From the NCBI GenBank assembly GCA_049974095.1, contig JBMFJD010000016.1, positions 1-10,084 on the forward strand: a stretch of DNA of 10,084 nt, read 5' to 3'. Shown here piece by piece: positions 1 to 10,084 of the stretch. Numbering within the stretch: the first letter of the stretch is position 1; each line of letters opens with the position of its first letter. The translations under genes and the position numbers were made by a program. The DNA comes from Nanopusillaceae archaeon. GTDB lineage: Archaea; Nanobdellota; Nanobdellia; Nanobdellales; Nanobdellaceae. The notes under the pieces are model-generated. The model made no database searches, was not told the origin of the DNA, and saw nothing but the letters and a program-made list of their open reading frames with translations.

Positions 1-2
1 GT

Positions 3-551
3 GGTACAGGATTTAGATTAGAAATAAGAGGAGAATTTACACCAATAGAAGATATATATTATAGAACATTATTAGAAGATGATCCTTTTAGATTAAGATT
101 TGCTTTAAGAAGGTATCTCGGTACTGGAGAAATAGATCTTCTAGATATATCATTTGATGAGAAAGAGCAATTAGGAGGATATTATGGAAGGATCGTAGAG
201 GTTGATATAAAGGATATTATTGATGATATTATGCTAACTGAAATAAAGAAGAGATCTTATATAGTAGAAAATATATACAAAGTAATAGAAGAGAGACTAT
301 TGAAATATGTTAAGAAGATAACATTATGGACAATTGTTATACCTGCACAGAAAGAATATATAGATATCATAAGAGATAACTTTAGGAAATATAGAATATT
401 AAAAGATCCATATTACGATGATAGAGTAATATTCTATAAAGTATCAAATGAGAATTTAGTAGAAAAATTTGAAGAATTAGGTATACCAGTTATAACATAT
501 AAAACAAAAGAAATAACTACAAAAAACGTAGATTTATCTGAGGAATTTTAA
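3..551 (+). CDS. C-terminal part of a charged (K/E/D/R-rich) cytoplasmic protein of unknown function; the 5' end lies upstream of the window
   Basis: Hand translation shows frame 3 is open from nt 3 (GTGFRLEIRGEFTPIEDIYYRTLLEDDPFRLRFALRRYLGTGEIDLL...) straight into the Met at 231 given in the ORF track. Stop TAA is at 549-551. The listed 106-aa ORF is therefore probably only the tail of a longer gene. No motif recognised. Confidence 0.7.
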   Translation, partial: GTGFRLEIRGEFTPIEDIYYRTLLEDDPFRLRFALRRYLGTGEIDLLDISFDEKEQLGGYYGRIVEVDIKDIIDDIMLTEIKKRSYIVENIYKVIEERLLKYVKKITLWTIVIPAQKEYIDIIRDNFRKYRILKDPYYDDRVIFYKVSNENLVEKFEELGIPVITYKTKEITTKNVDLSEEF

Positions 552-3260
552 CTATTTCTTTATTTGCTTGATTATTTCTTTTATTGATTCGGCAGATTGT
601 TTCCATGCCTCAAACATCCATATAAGTCCTTTAATTATATATGGTCCAAAGAATATAAATAGTACAAGCATTATTATACCACTTACTCCAACTGCTGTTA
701 TCACTTTTTCAAAGAATTGATCTATAGCTGTAAATATACCAATTGTTATTGTTGGACCTGTATATACTTTATTATTATTTATAGATATTGTAAAGTAATA
801 CTTACCATCACTTAATGATACAGGACATGATGCAGATGCTGTTCCATATGCTGGTATATTAACAACATCTGAACATGATTGTAATACTTGTGAACCTAAT
901 CCTAAGAATCCTCCTGAACTTACTATGTCTATTTTGACAACCAATCCACTAGCTGGTACGTCTAATGTATTAGCCAATGTTGCGTTTACATAATAAGTAC
1001 CTGGTGACCATACACCTCCTGTTATTTCATATCCATTAGAAGTATACCATGCTGCATTAGATACTACAACTTTAGTAGTAGCTACTTGTTGTTGAGTTAT
1101 AACACCAGGTCCTTGCCTGTTTGGTGGGAATGTACCTAAGTTCTGTCCATTAGCAGATACTACAAGGTAGAACATTTCTTGATGCAATAGCGAGTTCTGA
1201 TCTGGAGTAAATGATGCACATACTGTTACATTTTGATTTGGTTGTATAGTTACAGTAGTAGTATTAGATCCATATTCATTATTTGCAATGCCACCTTGTA
1301 ATCCTAAGACATTATATCCATATACAGTTACAGTAACTGTTGCTGTTGTTGGATATGGAGATGTTAATATAGCACATCCTTCTGCTGGTATTCCTTCAAC
1401 TAATTGATTTACATATGTTTGATTTCCTTGAGCAAAGTAATATCCTTCTACAGATATTATTGATGTAGGTTGTTGTACTACATTCAATTGTGGTCCTGCA
1501 TAATCAGTTCCTGGTATACCGAATATTTGTCCTACATCTGATGCTACATATTTATAATTAATATATGGTGATTGATAATATACATCGAAGTGATAATTAC
1601 CTGATGATGCAAAGGTAACGGGTAATGATACTTGTTGAGATCCTCCTGATGGTATATTAATATTAAATGATTGTGATGTAATTGCCTGATCTGGAGATAA
1701 TGGTATATTCTTTCTAACTGTTATAGTTACCTGTCCTACATATGTACAGTTCCTTGAATTCACAAAGTATGCTACTGCATCTACTTGTTGTCCTATTTGT
1801 ATTGATGTTATATACGTACCATTTATCTCCCATGCAGTGTATGCTAATGGTGGAGCATCAGTACAATATCCAGCTGTTGTTTGTCCACTTTGTACAGTAA
1901 ATGCTCCAAGTAGAGATTCTGGACCTAAGTTTTCATCTGGTAAATATTGTAGGTCATATTTTGGTAATGCATATACATAATATGCACCTGGTTGTTGGGG
2001 TACAAATGTTATAGTAATATTATAGAATCTTTGAACATTATATGGTTGTGGCGAGAAGTAATAGTTTGCAGACATATCTGTAGTTACTCCTTGATCTCCG
2101 ATTCTATATGATGCTACAGTATTACCATTAACATCTTTAATATATACATATAGAGCCGGACCATATGCACCTCCAGATATAACTGTTAAGTATAGAGGTA
2201 TATTTATAGTAACTGATTGCTCAACCAATGGGTTTTGTGGAGATATTTTTACTTGTCCTATTTGTACAGATACCTGTGGACTTGTAGATACTGTAGTTGC
2301 ATTTTGTGGTGGAGATGAGGCTGGACTTACAGATATAGAACCTACTAATGTCTTAGATCCAATTGTTGAATCTGACCAGTATTGTATTGAATATTTAGGT
2401 TCTATATAAACATAGTATGTTCCTTGAGTTGGAGGTATAAACCATACAGATATATTATAGTATCTCCATGTGTTTGTAGGAGTATAACTAAAGTAATAGT
2501 TTGTAGAAGAATCTGTAGTTATACCTTGTTGTCCAACTCTAAAGTATTGTATTACATTACCAGATGAATCTTGTATATATACATTAAGGTAAGGACCATA
2601 TGGACCTCCAGATATAACATCTAATGCTATTGGTATATATATCGTAACATTCTCACCTGCATGTGGAGATGATGGTACTACAGTTATTGGTCCATTAACA
2701 TTTATTTTAACATCTGGAGATGTAGATAATGATTGATTTGTAGTTGTTGGGGTAGGTGAAGGAGTAGGTGAAGGTGATGGAGTAATACTAGGAACAGTAA
2801 TTGTATATGTTTGTGTACCTAATGTAGTATCTGAACCATCTGCAATATCAACTGCCATTTGTACCTGAACTTGATATGTTCCAGGTTGTAGATTAAGGTT
2901 TACGTAATCGGTTCCAGATATAGGTTGACCATTAAATGAATATGGAATATCACATGATGTAGATGTTAATGAACAAACAGAACCATTAGTACCAGTTCTT
3001 ATTGCATCTATTTGTTGACCTTGGGTATTGTATACAAATACTCTAAAAAATAATCCTCTTCCACATGGAGATATTAATGGTATACAATAACTATTAACAC
3101 CAGAATAAGAATATGATATAATTAGATATGGATTTTGAAATGTAGCATTAAATGAATAAGAATTAGTTGTTTCTGCAGAGTGAATACTATGAGAAAATAA
3201 ACTAATTGAAAATATAATTATTATTACTCCTAGAAATTTCTTCAAAAAAGATAATTTCAT
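552..3260 (-). CDS. Large exported surface protein (902 aa) with a C-terminal membrane anchor and multiple beta-sandwich (Ig/CARDB-like) modules; likely N-glycosylated
   Basis: ATG at 3258-3260. N-terminal signal peptide MKLSFLKKFLGVIIIIFSISLFSHSIHSA/E (nt 3174-3260). PSPSPTPSPTPTTT linker (nt 2715-2786). C-terminal hydrophobic helix AVGVSGIIMLVLFIFFGPYII (nt 633-695) followed by the basic tail KQSAESIKEIIKQIKK. I count 13 N-x-S/T sequons by hand. There are 10 Cys in even-numbered groups. Module signatures such as P-x-x-P-x-x-GE-x-VTI ... G-x-Y-x-[FV] resemble CARDB/Ig-like domains (pattern recognition only). Confidence 0.85.
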   Translation of the reverse strand: MKLSFLKKFLGVIIIIFSISLFSHSIHSAETTNSYSFNATFQNPYLIISYSYSGVNSYCIPLISPCGRGLFFRVFVYNTQGQQIDAIRTGTNGSVCSLTSTSCDIPYSFNGQPISGTDYVNLNLQPGTYQVQVQMAVDIADGSDTTLGTQTYTITVPSITPSPSPTPSPTPTTTNQSLSTSPDVKINVNGPITVVPSSPHAGENVTIYIPIALDVISGGPYGPYLNVYIQDSSGNVIQYFRVGQQGITTDSSTNYYFSYTPTNTWRYYNISVWFIPPTQGTYYVYIEPKYSIQYWSDSTIGSKTLVGSISVSPASSPPQNATTVSTSPQVSVQIGQVKISPQNPLVEQSVTINIPLYLTVISGGAYGPALYVYIKDVNGNTVASYRIGDQGVTTDMSANYYFSPQPYNVQRFYNITITFVPQQPGAYYVYALPKYDLQYLPDENLGPESLLGAFTVQSGQTTAGYCTDAPPLAYTAWEINGTYITSIQIGQQVDAVAYFVNSRNCTYVGQVTITVRKNIPLSPDQAITSQSFNINIPSGGSQQVSLPVTFASSGNYHFDVYYQSPYINYKYVASDVGQIFGIPGTDYAGPQLNVVQQPTSIISVEGYYFAQGNQTYVNQLVEGIPAEGCAILTSPYPTTATVTVTVYGYNVLGLQGGIANNEYGSNTTTVTIQPNQNVTVCASFTPDQNSLLHQEMFYLVVSANGQNLGTFPPNRQGPGVITQQQVATTKVVVSNAAWYTSNGYEITGGVWSPGTYYVNATLANTLDVPASGLVVKIDIVSSGGFLGLGSQVLQSCSDVVNIPAYGTASASCPVSLSDGKYYFTISINNNKVYTGPTITIGIFTAIDQFFEKVITAVGVSGIIMLVLFIFFGPYIIKGLIWMFEAWKQSAESIKEIIKQIKK
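1890..2729 (-). repeat. In-frame tandem duplication of a Cys-free module of about 130-135 aa inside the 902-aa gene (copy 1 nt 2325-2729, copy 2 nt 1890-2288; period 145 aa = 435 nt)
   Basis: Copy 1 (aa 178-312): ...GENVTIYIPIALDVISGGPYGPYLNVYIQDSSGNVIQYFRVGQQGITTDSSTNYYF...YYNISVWFIPPTQGTYYVYIEPKY. Copy 2 (aa 325-457): ...EQSVTINIPLYLTVISGGAYGPALYVYIKDVNGNTVASYRIGDQGVTTDMSANYYF...FYNITITFVPQQPGAYYVYALPKY. The DNA-level echo ggaccatatgGacctccagatataac (from 2593) and ggaccatatgCacctccagatataac (from 2158) is offset by exactly 435 nt. Confidence 0.85.
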
Positions 3261-3262
3261 GA

Positions 3263-3859
3263 TTAGCTATAACAGCTTGGCGCATTCGTAGCTTCACATG
3301 CACTAGCCAATTGTGATATAGTTGATGTCATAAATAAGTATTCTCCATTATATTGACAGAATGTTACATTTTCTCCACCAACATTTACTAATACCACATT
3401 ACCAGGACATACTGCATAATTAATATATGTTGGAGATACTTCAAATATATAGTGTCCAATTTGTACCAATGGTAAAGTTGTATATGCTGGATTTTGTGCT
3501 TGAACTTGTTGTAGCATTGCTTGTCCTTGAGAAGTATCTACATTAATACCAATTGGATTAATTCCATATTGTTGTAATATCTGTCCTACATAATTAGCTT
3601 CCTGTTGTTGGTATGTATAGAAGTATATCTTACCAGTTAATTGTAATGATCCTCCTACTACTTGAGAATTAACTTGTGGTGTATTTACTGGTTGTACATA
3701 TGGTTGTTGTACAGCTACATTATTTACATAAAATAGGGTACTGCCCTGTGTCGTAATATATGCTAACCCTGCTATACCTGCAAGAACTAATAACATAGCT
3801 AATAACTTTTCATCCATAATACTTATATTATATTTAGTATATTTATATTTTCGCTTCAA
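3263..3859 (-). CDS. Signal-anchored, Gln-rich extracytoplasmic protein with a possible degenerate thioredoxin/glutaredoxin-like fold and a C-terminal 4-Cys domain
   Basis: The start listed in the ORF track is TTG (plus-strand caa at 3857-3859), overlapping the upstream stop as TTGA. An alternative ATG at 3815-3817 gives MDEKLLAMLLVLAGIAGLAYI. Single TM helix LLAMLLVLAGIAGLAYI. 22 Gln in 198 aa by hand count. Stop TAA 3263-3265 lies 2 nt before the next gene's ATG. Confidence 0.75.
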   Translation of the reverse strand: MKRKYKYTKYNISIMDEKLLAMLLVLAGIAGLAYITTQGSTLFYVNNVAVQQPYVQPVNTPQVNSQVVGGSLQLTGKIYFYTYQQQEANYVGQILQQYGINPIGINVDTSQGQAMLQQVQAQNPAYTTLPLVQIGHYIFEVSPTYINYAVCPGNVVLVNVGGENVTFCQYNGEYLFMTSTISQLASACEATNAPSCYS

Positions 3860-4371
3860 GATTTTTGAGGTGTGCTATTATCCTTGAATTTTGATAATAA
3901 TTGATCAACATTAGATAATACTTTCAAAAGTTCTTTTCTTTCATCTTCAGAAAGCATATCATATAACTTACAATAACCAGGTTGTAAGGTCTTTTGATTA
4001 ACATAAGGACATTCTTTTGCAAAAGGACAATTAAAAACTCTTAAACCAACCAAAGGAGCCTCGCCATTATTCGCAACCATATAAGGAACTATAACTGTAC
4101 CTGTTTTGGTACATGTAATTCCTGATGGTACTAATCTTTTGACTTTTATTCTTCTAGTATACTTAGTATCCTTATAATTAACTTCAATATTTTTTTCATC
4201 AATATATATAGCTATAACATTCATTTCCTTTAACTGCTTTATTAGGACAGATATTGTAGACATTGGTAAATTGAATTTCTTTGCAAGTTCAGAAATTGTA
4301 ATACCTGGCTGTGAATATATCGCTTGCAGAATTTCGATTAATGTTTTAGTAGAGTCTATCCTACTGATCAT
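3856..4371 (-). CDS. Winged helix-turn-helix (MarR/ArsR-like) DNA-binding regulator with a C-terminal 4-Cys domain
   Basis: The N-terminus TKTLIEILQAIYSQPGITISELAKKFNLPMSTISVLIKQLKEMNVIAI (nt 4204-4344) fits the wHTH pattern I-L-x-x-L-x(3-5)-G-x-T-x-x-E-L-A-x-x-x-x-x-x-x-S-T-[IV]-S-x-x-[IL]-x-x-L. The C-terminal part has C87, C115, C121, C134 (NCPFAKECPY...GYC) and a K/E-rich helix. ATG 4369-4371 overlaps the upstream stop as ATGA. No TM segment. Confidence 0.8.
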   Translation of the reverse strand: MISRIDSTKTLIEILQAIYSQPGITISELAKKFNLPMSTISVLIKQLKEMNVIAIYIDEKNIEVNYKDTKYTRRIKVKRLVPSGITCTKTGTVIVPYMVANNGEAPLVGLRVFNCPFAKECPYVNQKTLQPGYCKLYDMLSEDERKELLKVLSNVDQLLSKFKDNSTPQKS

Positions 4372-4646
4372 GTTACATTAACAATATTATATACCTGTAC
4401 ACAAGATGTATCCCCACATATTAGGGTATTCTTTGCAACTAAACACTGCTCTCCACTAATGTTTTGTGTACATGCATATAAATTGCCATATACATTATAT
4501 ACGTATATATTAAAGCTGCCTATTTGATATGTGCCTACAAGATTTATCTTATGGAAATACTGCTCTCCAATAAAAACCACTATAGAAATAATGAGGAGTA
4601 TTGCTATTAAGATAACCAACAAAGTTTGCTTATTGATTTTCACCAT
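4368..4646 (-). CDS. Small signal-anchored protein with an extracytoplasmic 4-Cys beta-rich domain; first gene of the minus-strand operon
   Basis: ATG 4644-4646. MVKINKQ followed by the TM helix TLLVILIAILLIISIVVFI. The ectodomain carries YGNLYACTQNISGEQC...CGDTSC. Stop TGA 4368-4370 overlaps the next ATG. Confidence 0.7.
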   Translation of the reverse strand: MVKINKQTLLVILIAILLIISIVVFIGEQYFHKINLVGTYQIGSFNIYVYNVYGNLYACTQNISGEQCLVAKNTLICGDTSCVQVYNIVNVT

Positions 4647-4656
4647 AATATAATAT

Positions 4657-4666
4657 TTTAAATAAC
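4657..4666 (+). promoter_or_regulatory. Candidate TATA box (TTTTAAATAA) for the MCM-like gene; implies a leaderless mRNA
   Basis: Centre is about 24 nt upstream of the ATG at 4685, matching the usual archaeal TATA-to-TSS distance if transcription starts at or near the ATG. No SD-like motif lies between. The background is AT-rich, so specificity is limited. Confidence 0.4.
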
Positions 4667-4676
4667 AAATATAAAT
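4667..4676 (-). promoter_or_regulatory. Candidate TATA box (minus strand ATTTATATTT) for the 92aa-171aa-198aa-902aa operon; implies a leaderless mRNA
   Basis: Centre is about 25-26 nt upstream of the ATG at 4646 on the minus strand. It directly abuts the candidate plus-strand TATA box inside a 38-bp divergent intergenic region. Confidence 0.4.
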
Positions 4677-4684
4677 ATTTATTT

Positions 4685-5860
4685 ATGGAAAATGAAACAA
4701 GATTGAAGAACCTGTCTTCAAAAATTTTGAAGTTATTAGATCTATTAGAAAACTATGAGTATGAATATTTAAGATATATAAATAGTATTAATATACCGAT
4801 ATATTCTGATCTAGTAATATTCAAGGAAGATGCTTTAAGTATCTTGGGAGTAGATGACTATAAGTATTTATTAGAAAATGGAATAATTAGAGAGAATATA
4901 TTTAATCCAAGAATTGTAGAAATAGTTAATATAAATAAATTATTGGATATGATCAGTTTGTACAAAGAGATGAAGAAATATTCATTATCAAAAGAAATAC
5001 TACAATCTGATAGGCCATTTTATGAATTATTACCATTAGTATCACCAAATGTAAAGAATACGGATATAATAGAGGTTGTAAAGAAAGTAATGTTATTACA
5101 ACTATTTTCTGGAGACGATAGAGGTTTTAGAACAAGAATACATATAGCTCTAATTGGAGATCCTGGTACTGGTAAAACTTTATTATTACAATGGCAGAGT
5201 GATATAAGTGGAGGATTATATTTATCATTAAGAACTACATCTGCAGGTCTATCTGGCAGCCTAGATCCAGCACAATTTTATAACAATTCACCACCATTAA
5301 TGGCTGCAAATGGAAAAATATTATGTATAGATGAAGCAGATAAGATATCTACATCAGATTTAGATCCATTATTAACTGCAATGGAAGAAGGAAAAGTTGT
5401 TCTAGCTGGTGCAGGATTACATTATGAGTATGAAGCTAAAGTTAGAATTATGTTATCATCTAACAGAAAGAAGTTCAGACCAGAACTAATGGATAGATTT
5501 GATTTAGTTGCATTATTTAGAAAACCATCAAAAAAAGAAACTGCAGACATTGTAGGACATATTATTGAATTTACAAGTGAAGAAAATCAAAGAATTCTAG
5601 AAGAAAGTAAAACAACAATAAATAATTATATGAAGTATGTAGAAAAGTTCTATCCAAAAATCATGGATAATGATGCTGTTAAGGAGGCAATAGCAGATAT
5701 AATAGAAAAGACTGGAGAATCTAGTGTTAGACATACATTAAAATGGTTAAGATTTGCTTATGCATATGCTAAAATAAATAGAGTAAATATAACACCAGAA
5801 ATAGTAAAAGAATTATATGATATGCTAAAAATACAAAGAATAAATCTTACTCAAGAGTAA
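4685..5860 (+). CDS. mcm: Truncated (mini) MCM-family AAA+ ATPase/helicase lacking the canonical MCM N-terminal domain
   Basis: Motif-by-motif match to the MCM catalytic core. LLQLFSG (MCM LLLQLFGG). RIHIALIGDPGTGKT, Walker A, nt 5156-5179 (MCM INILLVGDPGTAKS). TSAGLSGSL (MCM SAAGLTAAV). ILCIDEADK, Walker B, nt 5321-5341 (MCM CCIDEFDKM). LLTAMEEGKVVLAGAGL (MCM IHEAMEQQTISIAKAGI). Sensor-1 SSN at aa 258-260. Arg finger MDRFDL with R271 at nt 5495-5497 (MCM LSRFDL). Sensor-2/lid SSVRHTLKWLRFAYAYAKINRVNITPEIV (MCM TVRQLESLIRLSEAHAKMRLS). Only about 120 aa precede the core, whereas cellular MCMs have about 250-300 aa carrying the OB-fold and Zn finger. Confidence 0.85.
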   Translation: MENETRLKNLSSKILKLLDLLENYEYEYLRYINSINIPIYSDLVIFKEDALSILGVDDYKYLLENGIIRENIFNPRIVEIVNINKLLDMISLYKEMKKYSLSKEILQSDRPFYELLPLVSPNVKNTDIIEVVKKVMLLQLFSGDDRGFRTRIHIALIGDPGTGKTLLLQWQSDISGGLYLSLRTTSAGLSGSLDPAQFYNNSPPLMAANGKILCIDEADKISTSDLDPLLTAMEEGKVVLAGAGLHYEYEAKVRIMLSSNRKKFRPELMDRFDLVALFRKPSKKETADIVGHIIEFTSEENQRILEESKTTINNYMKYVEKFYPKIMDNDAVKEAIADIIEKTGESSVRHTLKWLRFAYAYAKINRVNITPEIVKELYDMLKIQRINLTQE

Positions 5861-6119
5861 TTATTCTCATTATCCCCCAACCAATTAGATATCCAGACAT
5901 ATAAAATATAAACCAATCAAAACCTGTACCAATTATAAACAAAGGATTTAATTGGAACATCAAGAAGGATACAAAAGCAGAGGAGTATATAATTAATAGT
6001 GCAGCATGAATTTTATCTAATATATCCGAAGCTTTTGATAACCATCCACCAACATATATACCTACACCTAATAATATTAGATCAATAATTACAGAAATTT
6101 GAAAAAATATAATGTTCAT
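5847..6119 (-). CDS. Small integral membrane protein with three predicted TM helices
   Basis: ATG 6117-6119 overlaps the upstream stop as ATGA. Hydrophobic segments are IIFFQISVIIDLILLGVGIYVGGW, AALLIIYSSAFVSFLMF and FIFYMSGYLIGWGIM. The 3' end overlaps the convergent MCM-like gene by 14 nt. A purine-rich tract GAGGAAGAGCAGGAAGA lies immediately upstream of the ATG (weakly SD-like). Confidence 0.65.
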   Translation of the reverse strand: MNIIFFQISVIIDLILLGVGIYVGGWLSKASDILDKIHAALLIIYSSAFVSFLMFQLNPLFIIGTGFDWFIFYMSGYLIGWGIMRIITLE

Positions 6120-6445
6120 TCTTCCTGCTCTTCCTCTGAATTACCTTGTACTAATGATAATTTACTAATCGCTTTCTGTACGGAAGATATATTTAATCCT
6201 ACATTAGATGATCTCTTTACTATTTCAGATAAGTTATCTAACAGTACATAACATAATCTTTCTCCTCCTTTTCCTGTAAATGAGAATTGTGGTTCACCAT
6301 CACCAAATACTATTTCACATCTTCTTTTTGCTTGCGATGGATCTTCTGATCCTATTGGCAATGTACTTAGATCATATGCGTAGCAAACTAGCCTATCTCC
6401 TACTTTCTTACATCCTATAGAAATTTTATCGTCGTATAGCGCCAT
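6116..6445 (-). CDS. Soluble 109-aa protein of unknown function with 4 Cys and an acidic C-terminal tail (SEEEQEE)
   Basis: ATG 6443-6445 with a TATA-like box about 26 nt upstream. No TM segment. Cys at positions 12, 21, 43 and 65. Translationally coupled (ATGA) to the downstream 3-TM gene. Confidence 0.7.
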   Translation of the reverse strand: MALYDDKISIGCKKVGDRLVCYAYDLSTLPIGSEDPSQAKRRCEIVFGDGEPQFSFTGKGGERLCYVLLDNLSEIVKRSSNVGLNISSVQKAISKLSLVQGNSEEEQEE

Positions 6446-6467
6446 ATAATATATTTATTATTATGTA

Positions 6468-6474
6468 TTATAAA
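6468..6474 (-). promoter_or_regulatory. Candidate TATA box (minus strand TTTATAA, preceded by the purine/A-rich ACAAAAG as a possible BRE) for the 109aa-90aa unit
   Basis: Lies in the 52-bp intergenic region 6446-6497. Its centre is about 26 nt upstream of the ATG at 6445, which implies a leaderless transcript. Confidence 0.45.
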
Positions 6475-6497
6475 CTTTTGTTATCATGAACAATGGT

Positions 6498-7205
6498 CTA
6501 TACATAGATATATTTAATTTCAAATGATAATGGTATATTGCCTTGTGTTGCTATTGAGTATAGCTCATACATAAAGTCTATGGATACTTTATAGACGTAT
6601 AGAAATATACCAATTGGTGGAGGTATAACATATGCTATCTTTCCAGATACATCTTGCACAGGAACTACTTCTGTAGAGTTATCATAGACCCTTAATAGTA
6701 TAACATCCGTTCCATTATATTCTATATACTTATGACAAATATATGATTGCTCACCATATACATTCTGAGTATGACATAATACATTACCATAGTATGCCGG
6801 AGAATAGAATAGTATAGATAATGCAAAGAATATGGTACCTAGAAAGAATGATATTATACTATATAATAGATATTTCTCTTCTTGTAATGTTAATAATACT
6901 ACTCCAGAGATTGTTAGGGCTACTGCTACCGATAAAAAGAAATATGCTAAACCATATAAAAAATTAAACATTGGAGGATTAGTACCCAAATAAAACATAG
7001 GAGATAAAGAATTAACAGTAACTATCATAGAACCAGGTAATATCAAAGAATATTTTGTATTAACATAAGGAAATGTATAATTATAACTTAAGGATATACT
7101 AAATGAAGGAGCTACAGTTACAAATTTATAGATAAATGCAACTAAAAATATATTTAGAAATATAAACAAAAATATAAATAAAATAAAAAAATACGAAAGT
7201 TTCAT
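6498..7205 (-). CDS. Polytopic membrane protein (3 predicted TM helices) with an extracytoplasmic C-terminal domain of about 100 aa carrying a Cys motif
   Basis: ATG 7203-7205. TM segments are FFILFIFLFIFLNIFLVAFIY, FLYGLAYFFLSVAVALTISGVVLLTL and LLYSIISFFLGTIFFALSILFY, with the short cytoplasmic loop QEEKY between TM2 and TM3. The C-terminal domain contains YGNVLCHTQNVYGEQSYIC (nt 6735-6791). Confidence 0.7.
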   Translation of the reverse strand: MKLSYFFILFIFLFIFLNIFLVAFIYKFVTVAPSFSISLSYNYTFPYVNTKYSLILPGSMIVTVNSLSPMFYLGTNPPMFNFLYGLAYFFLSVAVALTISGVVLLTLQEEKYLLYSIISFFLGTIFFALSILFYSPAYYGNVLCHTQNVYGEQSYICHKYIEYNGTDVILLRVYDNSTEVVPVQDVSGKIAYVIPPPIGIFLYVYKVSIDFMYELYSIATQGNIPLSFEIKYIYV

Positions 7206-7209
7206 TAAG

Positions 7210-7641
7210 CTATAGTAATGCTCCTAATATTGCTCCAACACCAAAAACTCCACCTACAAATAATCCAGTAATTCCTTGATTTACTGCATTACCGAATAAT
7301 GTTGCTACATTAGAGAATGATATTGTTATTGGCCCTGTAATTGCGTATGGTGTTTGTACTGATATTAAAAATGGTGATACAAATCCTATTACACCAAATA
7401 TTGCTGCCAATAAAAATATTCCATATAATGGATGTGTATGCAGATAGTCACTAATTGTTGGTATATACCTTTTAACCAAAAATCCTGTTACTAAACCTGC
7501 TAATATTATTGTCATCCATGCTGCTATAGATGTTAGATGCAATATTGCCAATACTATATCTACTACTATTACTGAGGCTATTGCAAATAACAAAAAAGTT
7601 ACAAATTGGCTCGATGTTATTCTATCTAATATTGTTGCCAT
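7210..7641 (-). CDS. Integral membrane protein (about 4 TM helices) ending in a glycine-zipper helix
   Basis: ATG 7639-7641 with a TATA-like box about 25 nt upstream. Hydrophobic segments are FVTFLLFAIASVIVVDIVLAIL, IAAWMTIILAGLVTGFLV, LYGIFLLAAIFGVIGFVSPFLI and the C-terminal GITGLFVGGVFGVGAILGALL (nt 7213-7281). Stop TAG at 7210-7212 is 4 nt before the next ATG. Confidence 0.7.
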   Translation of the reverse strand: MATILDRITSSQFVTFLLFAIASVIVVDIVLAILHLTSIAAWMTIILAGLVTGFLVKRYIPTISDYLHTHPLYGIFLLAAIFGVIGFVSPFLISVQTPYAITGPITISFSNVATLFGNAVNQGITGLFVGGVFGVGAILGALL

Positions 7642-7660
7642 ATTATATATATTAAAAACC

Positions 7661-7672
7661 TTTATTAAAAAA
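7661..7672 (-). promoter_or_regulatory. Candidate TATA box (minus strand TTTTTTAATAAA) for the 143aa-235aa unit
   Basis: Lies in the 52-bp intergenic region 7642-7693. Its centre is about 25 nt upstream of the ATG at 7641. Confidence 0.4.
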
Positions 7673-7679
7673 GTAAAGT

Positions 7680-7690
7680 TTTAAAAAATT
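7680..7690 (-). terminator. Oligo-T tract (T6 on the minus strand, plus-strand A6 at 7683-7688) right after the stop of the large Cys-rich gene; archaeal-type intrinsic terminator candidate
   Basis: The minus strand reads TAG-TTCAATTTTTTAAAAC. The T6 run begins 5 nt after the stop codon. Archaeal RNA polymerase terminates at oligo-T stretches. Confidence 0.4.
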
Positions 7691-7693
7691 GAA

Positions 7694-10084
7694 CTATAGG
7701 GCTCTTCTTTTATATAAGTAGTATCCAACACCTGCGGCTGCTAATATAGCTAAGAATGCTAATGCTATTGGTAATGGTGCTTGTACTCCAATTGCTGCAG
7801 CTGTAGGAGAAACTGGAGCTGATGGAACAGATGGAACAATTGGAGATGGAGCTGGACCTACAGGAACTACAGTAATGCTAGTAGATGAAACAGTAACTTG
7901 GTATTGATATGAACTAGATAATCCGGATGGATCTTCTGCAGTAATTGTTAATGTACCAGATTCTTGTGGTATGTTCAATCCTACATTTACTGTTTGTCCT
8001 GAATATACTACACCAGAATATATATCTTGAGTACTAGATGATGTTTGATATGTTATAGTTACATATACTGTCTTATATGGACTATATACTGTAAATGTTA
8101 CTGGGAATGGACTTGTATAATTGCTTGGTACTATTATAGATAGTAGTTGTGGTGGTTGCAATGCAATTTGAGATGTTGTGAAACATAGACCTGCAACACA
8201 TGTACCAGAACATGATTGTATATCATTCAATTGATAATATATTCTACCAGTAGAATTATCATATACTATTTGATATTCCGCTATACTTCCATTTGGTGTA
8301 CATACAGGTATTATCATTCCGTTAAATGAGGATAATTGTGATTGATTAGCTGCATTACCTATTACACATCTAAATGGAGCTACTTGTAATAGATACATAG
8401 ATGATGTAGTTCCAGATGTTGTTGGTGTTAATGCATATTGATATACAGATACAGCATCTGGACCACATTCATTAGCAAATAATAATGATGGTACACTTAC
8501 TTGATTCTCATTATATAACGATCCTGCGAAACAGTATTGTCCTGGCATTGCTGGGAATTCCTGAGTAATATTATATACACATTGTCCATTTACTACAGAG
8601 TAATTAACAACCGCTGCTAATGTACTAGATAAACATACATATGGAATACCACATTCGTTTGATACTTGTGGTATATATCCTGTTTGTACAGTAAATGTTA
8701 TAGTTGTTGAATTTGTAGTATTAGCTACATCACTACATGTTATTACCAATGTATTTGTTCCAGGTTGGATTGATACTGGGATAGTATATGGTGTACTTAC
8801 ATTGAATATTTGTTGTAATATTATATTGTTATTATATACTAAGGTACATGAAACTTGTGATTGAACAGTATCATTTACACTAAATGATACATTTACTGAT
8901 CCTCCAACAGTTCTAACAGTTTGTCCTTGTTTTGGATATGTTACATTTATTAATAATTGTGGAGATATTGGTGCAGTTACACATTGTCCGTATGAACAGA
9001 ATGTTCCTGATGGACAGGTTGTTGTACTTACTATTGTTTGATTTACTGTACCTAATGATGTAGGATCTATTGGAGGTACATTTACAGTACAGTAATATTG
9101 TACATATGCTAATGTTGTTGAATTCAAACATATATATCCTGGTGGAGGTACATCGTTATTATTTACACATTGTCCAGATGGTATTGGTACTAATGAACAT
9201 GTTGATGAGTTAAAGTATGTAGCATTTGGATATCCAGTAACCATAGATGGTACTGCTTGTCCTGCAATTAATCCACAACATGTACCTACTCCAGGATATC
9301 CACCCAATGCTTTACAGTATAGATTACATGATGATGCATTATATGCATAAAATATAGATTGTGATGTAATTAATGATAAATTACCAACAATACATGATAA
9401 TTGTACATTGTATACTCCTTGAGTTAATCCTGCTAAGTTTAATGGTACTTGTCCATTATATATTGGTCCCTCATATGTAAATGTTACAGAATTAGATGTA
9501 GATGTAGCTCCTGTAGTAGGACCACATGAGGACATTAAATTAGCAGTTGCAGTACAGGTAACTTGTGTTGGAGTACCAATATAGCCAGATAATGTAAAGT
9601 ATACTGTCGCACTACTACTACTTATTATTGGATATCCAACAGAATATGGTACAGTTGTTGTTGGCTGTATTGATGTAATTTGTAATGATGGAGGAACAAC
9701 TATATTTACGTTTATAGATGAACTTGTTTCATTTACACAGTTATTAGAGTATTGATAAACTACAAGTACTGTAATGTTATATGATCCTGGAGATAGTATT
9801 GTAACATTAAATGGTATTGATTGACCTGCAACAGATGGTGCAAATATACCATTAATATATAATTGTCCATTTAGGTATACTCCAATTGCAATTGTAGATA
9901 GGTTTAATCCTAATTGTGCAAGATTATTTTGTACTTTTAAAGTAAATGTTTGTCCAGCATAGAAGGTAGACCCGTTTGCTGGAGATAATATATTAACAAT
10001 TGGTGCATAACATGCTGTAGTTATTGTATAATTAGATACATTTTGTTGGGGAATTGGTGCTGTTGCTGTAGATAAATTATATGG
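7694..10084 (-). CDS. Very large Cys-rich, sequon-rich surface protein (at least 796 aa in the window) with a C-terminal membrane anchor; the 5' end lies beyond the window
   Basis: The ORF track starts at the Met at 9535. I translated 9536-10084 by hand in the same frame and found 183 further sense codons with no in-phase TTA/CTA/TCA on the plus strand (...APIVNILSPANGSTFYAGQTFTLKVQ...VVPPSLQITSIQPTTTVPYSV...QVTCTATANL-MSSCGPTT). The C-terminus has the S/P-rich stalk PVGPAPSPIVPSVPSAPVSPT (nt 7802-7870), the TM helix APLPIALAFLAILAAAGVGYYL (nt 7715-7780) and then KRRAL. There are 18 N-x-S/T sequons in the last 613 aa by hand count. Confidence 0.85.
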   Translation of the reverse strand, partial: PYNLSTATAPIPQQNVSNYTITTACYAPIVNILSPANGSTFYAGQTFTLKVQNNLAQLGLNLSTIAIGVYLNGQLYINGIFAPSVAGQSIPFNVTILSPGSYNITVLVVYQYSNNCVNETSSSINVNIVVPPSLQITSIQPTTTVPYSVGYPIISSSSATVYFTLSGYIGTPTQVTCTATANLMSSCGPTTGATSTSNSVTFTYEGPIYNGQVPLNLAGLTQGVYNVQLSCIVGNLSLITSQSIFYAYNASSCNLYCKALGGYPGVGTCCGLIAGQAVPSMVTGYPNATYFNSSTCSLVPIPSGQCVNNNDVPPPGYICLNSTTLAYVQYYCTVNVPPIDPTSLGTVNQTIVSTTTCPSGTFCSYGQCVTAPISPQLLINVTYPKQGQTVRTVGGSVNVSFSVNDTVQSQVSCTLVYNNNIILQQIFNVSTPYTIPVSIQPGTNTLVITCSDVANTTNSTTITFTVQTGYIPQVSNECGIPYVCLSSTLAAVVNYSVVNGQCVYNITQEFPAMPGQYCFAGSLYNENQVSVPSLLFANECGPDAVSVYQYALTPTTSGTTSSMYLLQVAPFRCVIGNAANQSQLSSFNGMIIPVCTPNGSIAEYQIVYDNSTGRIYYQLNDIQSCSGTCVAGLCFTTSQIALQPPQLLSIIVPSNYTSPFPVTFTVYSPYKTVYVTITYQTSSSTQDIYSGVVYSGQTVNVGLNIPQESGTLTITAEDPSGLSSSYQYQVTVSSTSITVVPVGPAPSPIVPSVPSAPVSPTAAAIGVQAPLPIALAFLAILAAAGVGYYLYKRRAL

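Follow-up and report, generated by a model that had tools for sequence, protein, structure and literature searches.

A putative cell-envelope or host-contact gene island with an embedded MCM-derived ATPase in an uncultivated Nanopusillaceae archaeon

Genes of the window

The stretch of DNA analysed here, called the window in the following, is one entire contig of 10,084 bp from the metagenome-assembled genome (MAG) of a Nanopusillaceae archaeon from a hot spring, and its proteins are identical to entries of this MAG that carry the name Nanopusillaceae archaeon (locus tags ACP5GJ_04330 to _04370). The gene map places 10 genes between positions 552 and 10084 and an additional partial gene at 1-551, such that g01 and g11 are both cut by the contig ends. 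The features are as follows:

1-551, plus strand: g01, the C-terminal 183 codons of a soluble protein of 228-241 aa; runs off the left contig end
552-3260, minus strand: g02, exported protein of 902 aa with a Sec-type signal peptide and a C-terminal transmembrane (TM) anchor
3263-3817, minus strand: g03, about 184 aa, one N-terminal TM segment, Q-rich, 4 Cys
3856-4371, minus strand: g04, MarR/HTH_24 winged-helix regulator, C-terminal extension with 4 Cys
4368-4646, minus strand: g05, 92 aa, N-terminal TM segment, 4 Cys; the g05-g04-g03-g02 run begins here
4647-4684, no strand: A+T-rich spacer of 38 bp that separates the start codons of the divergently oriented g05 and g06 (mini-MCM)
4685-5860, plus strand: g06 (mini-MCM), 391 aa, MCM-type AAA+ core and lid
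5847-6119, minus strand: g07, membrane protein of 90 aa with 2-3 TM segments
6116-6445, minus strand: g08, soluble protein of 109 aa, 4 Cys
6498-7205, minus strand: g09, 235 aa, 3 TM segments and a C-terminal extracytoplasmic part
7210-7641, minus strand: g10, polytopic membrane protein of 143 aa with about 4 TM segments
7694-10084, minus strand: g11, the C-terminal 796 aa of an exported protein of 959 aa; runs off the right contig end

For g03, the mechanical ORF reaches 3859 from a TTG, and the homologues begin at an internal ATG. All window ORFs have dN/dS values of 0.05-0.5 against two relatives, and we therefore take them all to be real genes under purifying selection. Values of 0.05-0.09 are found for g01 (0.05), the MarR gene g04 (0.08-0.09), the mini-MCM g06 (0.07-0.08) and g07, and values of 0.17-0.5 for the surface proteins, with g02 at 0.17-0.25.

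RNA and Pfam searches of the window found neither a tRNA nor an Rfam RNA nor any housekeeping gene, and the sole enzyme-like Pfam match is that of the ORF at 4685-5860. For g08 there was no database match, and the component models of PADLOC, which cover defence systems, gave only generic matches at the wHTH or AAA level, with E values of 1e-5 or weaker. An earlier note on this DNA had described a truncated MCM-type AAA+ ATPase as the only recognisable enzyme, a winged-helix regulator embedded among the other genes and an absence of housekeeping genes, and all of this is borne out. Its count of signal or TM segments in eight of the eleven genes was too high by one, since g08 has none and such hydrophobic segments are found in g02, g03, g05, g07, g09, g10 and g11.

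The note's description of two giant proteins as anchored and rich in both Cys and sequons stands for the anchors, because g02 and g11 each have a C-terminal TM segment; the compositional part applies to g11 and not to g02. In g11, there are 28 Cys (3.5%) and 26 sequons, twice the expectation from shuffled sequences (12.5 +/- 3.0), as compared to 10 Cys (1.1%) and 13 sequons (10.5 +/- 2.9 in shuffles) in g02. Furthermore, g11 has a Pro-rich stalk, a KRRAL tail and only 1.3% Lys plus Arg (K+R). Its family has 24 invariant Cys that have been kept over deep divergence, g11 is not hypervariable, and Ig-like domains of the Big_7 and PKD types are present in a distant homologue. In g02, which has 3.5% K+R, a domain of about 145 aa with weak Ig-like matches is repeated internally (435-nt period).

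Full-length relatives of g01 share the motifs hhhDxD, SGxG and hhDhsF, with D25, D27, S55, G58 and D103 invariant in the alignment. These strings are reminiscent of a palm or AEP-like domain, a putative assignment for which our searches gave no support: g01 has no Pfam, PHROG, PDB-sequence, phage or plasmid match, the His of AEP motif II is replaced by Arg or Gln in its family, hhalign against a PriS-PriL primase gave a probability of 0.2%, and the AlphaFold2 model of the g01 fragment is of very low confidence (pLDDT 41).

The MCM-type ATPase

By its P-loop domain and its ATP-site motifs, g06 can be assigned to the MCM family within the AAA+ clade. Residues 106-295 match the Pfam MCM P-loop domain PF00493 above the cut-off (E 1.6e-24), the top PDB matches by sequence as well as by fold are all MCM subunits, and the best Foldseek match of the AlphaFold model (pLDDT 85) is the AAA+ tier of MCM subunits (E 4e-17). 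Walker A (GDPGTGKT), Walker B (DEADK), sensor 1 (N260), the Arg finger (R271) and sensor 2 (R349) are invariant in 15 members of the mini-MCM family. At the same time, g06 lacks the canonical architecture of a replicative MCM, both in its N-terminal tier and in a lysine of the pre-sensor-1 (PS1) hairpin. Pfam gives no match to MCM_N or MCM_OB, the OB/Zn tier is absent, as is a C-terminal WH domain, and the NCBIfam model of full-length MCM scores 61 bits against a cut-off of 940. In the model, the N-terminal ~100 aa fold into helices with three short strands, giving a helical domain that resembles a winged helix.

In the MCM of S. solfataricus, K430, the lysine at the tip of the PS1 beta-hairpin, drives DNA translocation. 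The hairpin itself is retained in the g06 model (strands E237-242 and E245-250), but the position of the lysine is taken by G242, which is invariant in the family and which a profile alignment places opposite the Lys in the 'IAKAG' of Mcm6. Since the OB/Zn tier is exchanged and the PS1 lysine lost, we read g06 as a ring ATPase paralogous to the replicative helicase and not as that helicase itself. It is a cytoplasmic AAA+ protein of MCM descent in which a small winged-helix-like domain has taken the place of the OB/Zn DNA-binding tier, and it may have an accessory role while bound to DNA. If it is an accessory replication or repair factor, this would be a further case of MCM paralogues becoming specialised, here in a minimal genome.

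The archaeal replicative MCM, as known from Saccharolobus solfataricus (PDB 3F9V/4R7Y), resembles g06 in its AAA+ core and lid, Walker A and B, sensor 1, SRFD-type Arg finger and sensor 2. However, it has about 650-700 aa as compared to 391 aa, the two are only 27-36% identical, and the helix-2-insert region of g06, shorter by 4 residues, shows no hairpin in the model. Additional ATPases of the MCM family that do not belong to the core replisome are also encoded by plasmids, viruses and proviruses (Thermococcus nautili pTN3, a 4.7-kb plasmid of Methanocaldococcus vulcanius, haloarchaeal tailed viruses, an Altiarchaeum virus, and BcMCM of a Bacillus provirus), and in some of them the N-terminal region is reduced or replaced, as it is in g06. 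Nevertheless, the plasmid and virus proteins in INPHARED and PLSDB are 22-37%, mostly 22-33%, identical to g06 and thus no closer to it than cellular MCMs, a library of viral structures matches it less well than cellular MCMs do, and no hallmark gene of mobile elements lies beside it.

In a search of 1.84 billion proteins, the nearest outgroups of the mini-MCM family were not canonical MCMs, but short stand-alone MCM-like AAA+ proteins of 280-460 aa on metagenome contigs. These match positions ~100-377 of the mini-MCM profile, that is, only the AAA+ core and lid, and lack the N-terminal domain of the mini-MCM. The full-length family itself is tiny, with 4 clusters at 50% identity and 15 at 90%.

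The earlier note had considered that the MCM-like gene might turn out to be the sole replicative MCM of its organism. This is not so in the one lineage checked, type E, because a second MCM, full-length, Zn-finger-bearing and very divergent, is encoded 8 kb from the mini-MCM (locus L005). As a side observation, this full-length protein is further from standard MCMs than the mini-MCM is.

Conservation and surroundings of the gene cluster

All 11 genes are collinear on related metagenome contigs in which the mini-MCM is 96% (L001), 83% (L002) and 53-55% (L003/L026) identical to that of the window, and per-gene identity is 35-67% in the most distant collinear set. The cluster sits in an island of at least 28-31 kb that consists mostly of genes for giant exported, anchored proteins, with at least five more of them outside the window besides g02 and g11. 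These large proteins have signal peptides, C-terminal anchors, a K+R content of 0.8-2.5% and many sequons. The recognisable soluble proteins of the island are related to DNA: the MCM-like ATPase, the MarR regulator, an Mrr/Hjc-like nuclease, a ParB_N protein and a Zn ribbon. A family of proteins of 68-84 aa with 19-27% K+R, common to locus types A, B, D and E, is present in 3-4 copies per island.

Two more distant arrangements are of particular interest. The type-D locus L041 retains the order g10-g09-g08-g07, mini-MCM, g05-MarR-73-aa protein, and genes for a GT4 glycosyltransferase, a cysteine-synthase-like PLP enzyme, a PEP-utilizer-domain protein, a UpsA-like type IV pilin and a radical SAM/SPASM maturase are interleaved with it. 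The type-E locus L005 contains the mini-MCM and a homologue of g11, together with homologues of two island genes that are situated outside the window (B09, a giant protein of 722 aa, and B07/B08, TM proteins of 198/220 aa), beside a fused PriS-PriL primase and the full-length MCM. Such a fusion has otherwise been reported only in Nanoarchaeum equitans, plasmid pTN2 and a Bacillus provirus (PMC3973330). Types A, B and E all have g01 beside the cluster.

The distribution of the locus is patchy. In a collection of 5.8 billion proteins, the mini-MCM, g02 and g11 families have no member on a contig longer than 60 kb, with g02 homologues confined to contigs of 31 kb or less, and a pattern scan of the GTDB species representatives, in which some reference stretches were masked, revealed no mini-MCM. 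The locus therefore seems to be absent from the complete genomes of cultured Nanoarchaeota, and the universal presence in related chromosomes that the earlier note had named as a refuting observation finds no support. No empty site was seen. Three versions of the cluster occur in one MAG, and the coverage of types A and B differs about 2.2- to 2.6-fold in two assemblies, which points either to a mixed bin or to elements with a copy number of their own.

A probable surface island and its alternatives

We consider the locus to be a chromosomal island for the cell envelope or for host contact, with an embedded paralogous ATPase of MCM origin, in an uncultivated member of the Nanopusillaceae, and we give this reading a probability of about 0.65. 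The window would be a fragment of a conserved, vertically inherited island in a thermophilic Nanopusillaceae genome (Nanoarchaeota, DPANN), and most of the island's coding capacity serves large Sec-exported, C-terminally anchored, Lys/Arg-poor proteins of Ig-like domains, which in the window are g02 and g11. Together with the small membrane proteins g03, g05, g07, g09 and g10, these most likely form the cell envelope, or the surface by which an ectosymbiont contacts its host. As its competing reading, the earlier note had named a cell-cell adhesion island in a host-dependent (DPANN-like) archaeon, and this fits better than that note's headline, given the Nanopusillaceae MAG, the collinearity down to 53-55% identity and the interleaving with cellular genes. 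The location of g06 amid envelope genes would then reflect long-standing co-inheritance, and a coupling between the ATPase and these genes does not form part of this proposal.

The surfaces of Nanoarchaeota are glycosylated, and their hypothetical external proteins evolve fast (PMC4935971, PMC6142677). The window locus can be likened to surface-protein islands of DPANN archaea and to the cell-wall 'metagenomic islands', namely those with nanohaloarchaeal giant SPEARE-type proteins, the cell-wall island of Haloquadratum walsbyi and the 'hypothetical external' proteins of Yellowstone Nanoarchaeota (PMC10266531, PMC4535781, PMC6142677). They, too, are clusters of very large exported, membrane-anchored proteins with an ATPase gene among them, in which glycosylated proteins of a host-dependent archaeon evolve faster than cytoplasmic genes. 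However, we found no sequence similarity between the window proteins and these islands, and the ATPase of the window locus is MCM-derived and soluble, whereas the nanohaloarchaeal one is of the VirB4/TraG type. The proteins proposed to recognise and hold the hosts of Nanoarchaeota are unannotated 'hypothetical external' proteins, and the locus defines a conserved gene set of this kind for comparison between lineages, one product of which is the giant protein with its 24 invariant cysteines. Through deep divergence, these genes have been accompanied by a well-conserved ATPase of MCM origin whose DNA-binding tier has been replaced.

The headline of the earlier note had been an undescribed archaeal mobile element or virus, and we regard it as unlikely that the island, together with its relatives of 96% to about 40% identity, is, or belongs to, a plasmid, integrated element or enveloped virus of Nanoarchaeota. 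In such an element, the mini-MCM, perhaps with a palm- or primase-like g01, would carry out replication, the small K-rich helical proteins would coat the DNA, and the giant glycoproteins would serve as envelope and for host attachment or would reshape the surface of the tiny host. The possibility keeps some weight because the family is patchy and missing from contigs above 60 kb and because several divergent versions, with differing A/B coverage, occur in one MAG. Also in line with it are the A- and B-type contigs of 28-31 kb, which are transcribed almost wholly in one direction, consist nearly all of ORFans and hold no unambiguous housekeeping gene; the DNA-related nature of the soluble proteins; the repeated K+R-rich family; the DxD...SGxG...D pattern of g01; and the precedent of archaeal plasmids and viruses that carry MCM genes. 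Moreover, two close relatives (~83% DNA identity) diverge completely just beyond the 764/1015-aa gene, where a nuclease cassette in one is exchanged for a ParB_N cassette in the other, the ParB_N gene being found in one relative only. Against this, about 150 kb of related loci contain no integrase, tRNA, att site, ITR or other terminal repeat, or circular junction, neither the window nor five long related loci contain a tRNA gene, and flanking repeats and overlaps of contig ends were likewise not seen, with the island ends reached on some contigs only. Capsid, terminase or packaging, and conjugation genes had no Pfam or PHROG match in the window and 31 island genes, but such profile searches frequently miss the capsid proteins of crenarchaeal-type viruses. 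Among the 2.9 million contigs of IMG/VR, there are no relatives of g01, g02 or g11 and no member of the mini-MCM family, with a single distant MCM at 28% identity; INPHARED holds distant MCMs only, and PLSDB gave no DNA match, no g01 match and only MCMs of 24-33% identity. The 28-kb contigs break within a 1289-aa gene and not at termini, one mini-MCM copy of the source MAG lies on a contig of 59.9 kb, which is longer than the island, and the core genes of type D are mixed with cell-type genes, those of type E with a full-length MCM and a primase of the Nanoarchaeum type. Thus, the mobile-element headline received no positive support, and a lone MCM amid membrane ORFans is not sufficient to call an archaeal virus where the host is a DPANN episymbiont. 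Were the island mobile after all, it would be among the very few candidate viruses or plasmids of hot-spring DPANN archaea.

Integrated elements have repeatedly brought MCM helicases into archaeal genomes, including the extra copies of Thermococcus kodakarensis. These copies are reported to be non-essential (PMC3239210). By this precedent, the island might be chromosomal now and yet be the domesticated remnant of an ancient integrated element, with the mini-MCM, g01, MarR and nuclease/ParB genes as relics of replication and partition and the surface genes accreted or kept as cargo. The mini-MCM is indeed a divergent paralogue beside a separate full-length MCM, its nearest outgroups are the short MCM-like proteins, and it clusters with small DNA-related genes. 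We nevertheless hold this to be distinctly unlikely, since neither an integrase pseudogene nor an att scar was seen, and strong purifying selection and the invariant ATP site indicate that the function of the mini-MCM is maintained and not decaying. Less probable still is a mechanical coupling to the envelope genes, in which the mini-MCM would be a membrane-docked ring ATPase that powers surface assembly or moves nucleic acid derived from the host. It adjoins g07-g10 or g11-type genes in types A, B, D and E, down to 42-48% identity, and in types A and B its 3' end overlaps that of the convergent g07 (by 14 nt in the window). By analogy, VirB4/TraG-like ATPases are encoded with or beside the giant surface proteins of nanohaloarchaea (PMC10266531), and Nanoarchaeota rely on their hosts for nucleotides (PMC4935971). 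Yet g06 has no TM segment or membrane-binding motif and lies on the strand opposite to every envelope gene, a glycosyltransferase gene intervenes before g07 in type D, g07-g10 are missing in type E, and its steadiest neighbour is the MarR regulator.

The MarR-type gene g04, which locus types A, B, D and E all keep near the mini-MCM, lies inside the g05-g04-g03-g02 run, and this run may be regulated together with g06 from the region between them. The 38-bp spacer is identical in the window and L001, near-identical in L002, the third type-A relative, and similar in type B; from its sequence and position, it is likely to be a shared bidirectional promoter of the g05 run and g06.

Gene content and relatives of the window

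The window has a G+C content of approximately 30%, and its genes are tightly packed.

Genes of the window
g01: 1-551, plus strand, cut by the window end
g02: 552-3260, minus strand, 902 aa, first gene of the minus-strand run g02-g05
g03: 3263-3817, minus strand, run g02-g05
g04: 3856-4371, minus strand, run g02-g05, MarR/HTH_24 winged-helix protein (Pfam)
g05: 4368-4646, minus strand, run g02-g05
g06: 4685-5860, plus strand, 391 aa, sole complete plus-strand gene, MCM P-loop domain (Pfam); the mini-MCM
g07: 5847-6119, minus strand, second minus-strand run g07-g11
g08: 6116-6445, minus strand, second run
g09: 6498-7205, minus strand, second run
g10: 7210-7641, minus strand, second run
g11: 7694-10084, minus strand, second run, cut by the window end

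Only two products, those of g06 and g04, were recognized by Pfam, which bears out the truncated MCM-type ATPase and the winged-helix regulator that the earlier note had read from the sequence. In g06, residues 106-295 match the MCM P-loop domain (E = 1.6e-24), and neither MCM_N nor MCM_OB was matched. Signal or transmembrane (TM) segments, which had been claimed for eight of the eleven genes, were found by a hydropathy scan in seven products (g02, g03, g05, g07, g09, g10 and g11); small counts of this kind excepted, the initial observation was correct. The window contains no tRNA or Rfam RNA, a scan for bacterial promoters and terminators gave nothing relevant, and a repeat search found the remainder at chance level beyond an internal domain repeat in g02. 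At its 3' end, the mini-MCM gene shares 14 nt (5847-5860) with the 3' end of the convergent g07, and this overlap is kept in a type-B contig.

The mini-MCM of the window is deposited as MGC9133602.1, 'AAA family ATPase [Nanopusillaceae archaeon]', and g11 and g02 are 100% identical to ACP5GJ_04370 and ACP5GJ_04330, hypothetical proteins of a Nanopusillaceae archaeon MAG. The window makes up one entire contig of this metagenome-assembled nanoarchaeon, a host-dependent DPANN archaeon and the type of organism that the earlier note had invoked in its competing reading, a cell-cell adhesion island.

The gene order of the window is repeated gene for gene in related contigs of type A (L001, L002) and type B (L003/L025/L039 and L026/L040), where per-gene identity between the window and the type-B copies ranges from 35% (g10) to 67% (g01). 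Compared to L001 and L002, dN/dS is 0.05-0.09 for g01, g04, g06 and g07 and 0.17-0.51 for the exported and membrane proteins, which implies that every ORF is a maintained gene. The fastest-evolving products in this comparison are the surface proteins, a pattern that has also been described for the 'hypothetical external' proteins of Yellowstone Nanoarchaeota (PMC6142677). The possibility that g09 is a pseudogene in the relatives was rejected, because the reading frames are intact and the gene calls alone differ.

The g01 family is kept beside the mini-MCM from type A through type E, and its full-length members have 228-241 aa (e.g., L001:1892-2605 and, in a type-E locus, L005:7422-8147). They contain the motif-like strings hhhDxD, SGxG and hhDhsF, with an invariant DxD, S..G and D in a beta-alpha-beta-beta pattern, which might resemble a palm or AEP primase-polymerase domain. 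Support for a primase-polymerase came neither from the family profile (PDB sequences, Pfam, PHROGs) nor from tblastn against phages and plasmids or hhalign against a PriS-PriL primase. The AF2 model of the partial g01 of the window has a pLDDT of 41.

The mini-MCM and its family

The mini-MCM family is small. It comprises 15 clusters at 90% identity and, among 1.84 billion representatives, 4 clusters at 50%, beyond which the scores fall from 325 to 188 bits and the next proteins are short MCM-like ones that match the AAA+ core only.

Types of mini-MCM and their members
Type A: window, P0001-3
Type B: P0005, P0006, P0009, P0010
Type C: P0004, P0007, P0008
Type D: P0012, P0014
Type E: P0013, P0015

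Mutual identity among types A, B and C is approximately 53-55%, and types D and E share 38-48% identity with type A. Dozens of stand-alone MCM-like metagenome proteins of 280-460 aa (P0057-P0202) outscore canonical MCMs against this family. A literature search for a truncated MCM in Nanoarchaeota or DPANN gave nothing specific.

In the 15-member alignment, Walker A (G158-T165, GDPGTGKT), Walker B (D216 and E217), sensor 1 (N260), the arginine finger (R271 in DRFD) and sensor 2 (R349) are all invariant. From this invariance and a dN/dS of 0.07 we conclude that the mini-MCM should be an active ATPase. Its AlphaFold model (pLDDT 85, pTM 0.76) has a winged-helix-like N-terminal domain of approximately 100 aa (long helix, strand, helix, two strands, helix), which is followed by a standard AAA+ core and lid. 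Foldseek aligns the model with the ATPase tier of MCM subunits from yeast, human and archaea (E approximately 1e-17 to 1e-15; TM 0.55-0.63 over the query). However, the OB/Zn N-terminal tier of canonical MCMs is wholly absent, the lysine at the tip of their pre-sensor-1 hairpin is aligned with an invariant glycine (Gly242), and the helix-2-insert region is shorter by four residues and forms no hairpin in the model. Furthermore, there is no C-terminal winged helix, because the chain stops just past the lid. We infer that the mini-MCM does not serve as the replicative helicase and consider an accessory ring ATPase that meets DNA via its N-terminal domain more likely.

The run with the MarR gene is headed by g05, and an A+T-rich spacer of 38 bp separates the g05 start codon from that of the mini-MCM. 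L001 has exactly the spacer of the window, L002 has a near-identical one, and the type-B spacer is recognizably similar. Given this conservation, it is plausible that the mini-MCM and the g05 run are co-regulated from a shared bidirectional promoter in the spacer.

Surface proteins and the larger island

The two giant exported proteins, g02 and g11, had been described as anchored, Cys-rich and sequon-rich. A C-terminal TM anchor is indeed present in both, but the richness in cysteines and sequons holds for g11 only. It has 3.5% Cys and 26 N-X-S/T sequons, where 12.5 +/- 3.0 are expected and none of 1000 shuffles reached 26, whereas g02 has 13 against 10.5 +/- 2.9 expected from its composition. 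g02 contains two copies of a domain of approximately 145 aa with weak Ig-like matches. The best-conserved giant protein is g11: in the family alignment from type A to type E, 24 cysteines are invariant and a long central motif is kept. On this evidence it resembles a fixed structural component more than a hypervariable adhesin. With a K+R content of 1.3%, it is reminiscent of the Nanopusillus S-layer protein, which was missed by tryptic proteomics because it lacks cleavage sites (PMC4935971). Since g11 has no sequence similarity to solved structures, we do not term it an S-layer protein.

The larger island was reconstructed from loci joined from one 31-kb contig. It has approximately 31 genes, almost all on the same strand, and encodes seven large proteins of 475-1289 aa, g02 and g11 among them, with signal peptides, numerous sequons, a K+R content of 0.8-2.5% and, in most, a C-terminal anchor. 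The genes between the giants encode small TM proteins and a Zn-ribbon protein. In this context, a nanohaloarchaeal giant anchored protein itself carries a VirB4/TraG-like ATPase domain, with a second ATPase gene immediately downstream (PMC10266531); the proximity of the island giants to the mini-MCM would be comparable by analogy only. Two families of small proteins recur in the island.

Small-protein families of the island
L026:13550-14284: K-rich small proteins, three tandem genes
L040:2469-2723: K-rich small protein
L001:1163-1384: K-rich small protein
L005:10362-10589 and 3241-3444: K-rich small proteins
L041:8242-8463: K-rich small protein (type-D locus)
L026:15919-16326, 17381-17773 and 21372-21749: soluble proteins of approximately 130 aa

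The K-rich paralogues (67-84 aa) occur in 3-4 copies per island in types A, B, D and E, contain 19-27% Lys+Arg in the four type-B copies examined, and gave no match in the databases. They look helical from sequence. That they bind DNA is a guess. The soluble, Cys-containing proteins of approximately 130 aa are located after giant exported-protein genes, and two of the three in L026, with 43% identity, are clearly paralogous. A giant gene and its small partner may therefore form a repeated unit.

Between relatives of approximately 83% DNA identity, a cassette of ParB_N and a 130-aa protein (L026:16675-17830) replaces one of a Mrr/Hjc-like nuclease and three small genes (L025:16680-18190), and past the next giant gene L025 and L026 are without any similarity. 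The similar 28-kb sizes of two contigs were considered as genome termini, which was rejected, because both break inside a homologue of the 1289-aa gene that is read through by a third contig.

Mobile element or chromosomal island

The earlier note had proposed a mobile element or virus, and several observations would fit a currently mobile element. In the mini-MCM, g02 and g11 families, every member found lies on a contig of at most 60 kb, so complete genomes of cultured Nanoarchaeota seem to lack them. A scan of GTDB representatives returned no mini-MCM either; its hits were distant canonical MCMs from other DPANN and from some bacteria. The A- and B-type contigs have no clear housekeeping gene. 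Furthermore, three mini-MCM versions are found in the same MAG, on contigs of 10.1, 28.7 and 59.9 kb (the last carrying P0005, type B). A pattern scan of metagenomes added only short contigs, whose names give a coverage of 6.1-6.8x for type B and 2.3-3.1x for type A in two ENA assemblies. This difference of approximately 2.2- to 2.6-fold in each assembly led us to reject the three copies as paralogues of one genome. Types A and B represent different populations, which are either species binned together or elements of independent abundance; the bin is probably a mixture of two or three related populations. The accession numbers of the three versions lie within approximately 325 of each other in a MAG of at least 874 loci.

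Against mobility stands the absence of any integrase, transposase, capsid, terminase or conjugation domain from the window and approximately 60 neighbouring genes (Pfam, PHROGs, NCBIfam). The five long related loci lack tRNAs, PADLOC found no known defence system, and the related loci retrieved have no detectable end-to-end overlap or inverted terminal repeat. The whole window has no DNA match in INPHARED phages or PLSDB plasmids (megablast); in IMG/VR, g01, g02 and g11 have no relative and the mini-MCM only one, a distant MCM of 28% identity. The MCMs of archaeal viruses and plasmids (22-37% identity, mostly 22-33%) are no closer to the mini-MCM than cellular DPANN MCMs (27-36%), and the viral structure library matched its model more poorly than cellular MCMs did. 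The proposal of a virus or mobile element is not positively supported.

The distant versions tip the balance. In profile searches of L041 (type D), homologues of g10-g09-g08-g07 stand in window order; the mini-MCM comes next, on the other strand, and after it g05, the MarR gene and a 73-aa K-rich protein. Interleaved are cell-type genes: a GT4 glycosyltransferase directly convergent with the mini-MCM, a cysteine-synthase-like PLP enzyme, a PEP-utilizer-domain protein, an UpsA-like type IV pilin (L041:7610-8104) and a radical SAM/SPASM maturase. The maturase, closest in similarity to anaerobic sulfatase and peptide maturases, recurs with a conserved neighbour of 212-224 aa in both distant loci (L041:290-1555, L005:1384-2607), 7-9 kb from the mini-MCM. 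In L005 (type E), the mini-MCM, a g11 homologue containing Ig-like domains (Big_7 and PKD), and homologues of the island's 722-aa giant B09 and TM proteins B07/B08 adjoin a fused PriS-PriL primase and a full-length MCM (16193-17500, 18031-20370). Reports of such a fusion are otherwise limited to Nanoarchaeum equitans, plasmid pTN2 and a Bacillus provirus (PMC3973330). The full-length MCM (891 aa, Zn-finger motif) is just 24-26% identical to other DPANN MCMs and has a lower Pfam MCM score (39 bits) than the mini-MCM (87 bits); the suspicion that it is not a real MCM was nevertheless rejected, as its N-terminal Zn-finger region aligns too.

What the types share is a stable backbone whose membership shifts by insertion and loss, common to metabolic and envelope genes. 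A pattern of this kind is expected from vertical descent in a cellular genome and is difficult to square with a compact 30-kb virus. With the backbone of the D and E loci interleaved with metabolic, envelope and replication genes, a surface-protein island of a DPANN episymbiont accounts better for the data, and we give a chromosomal island of this kind a probability of approximately 0.65. We consider a currently mobile element unlikely, and a domesticated remnant of one somewhat less probable still. An MCM paralogue with a replaced N-terminus is embedded in this probable island. The A-type island is flanked by a weak PLP-enzyme gene that is truncated or missing in close relatives, a picture that resembles the ordinary decay of genes in a reduced chromosome.
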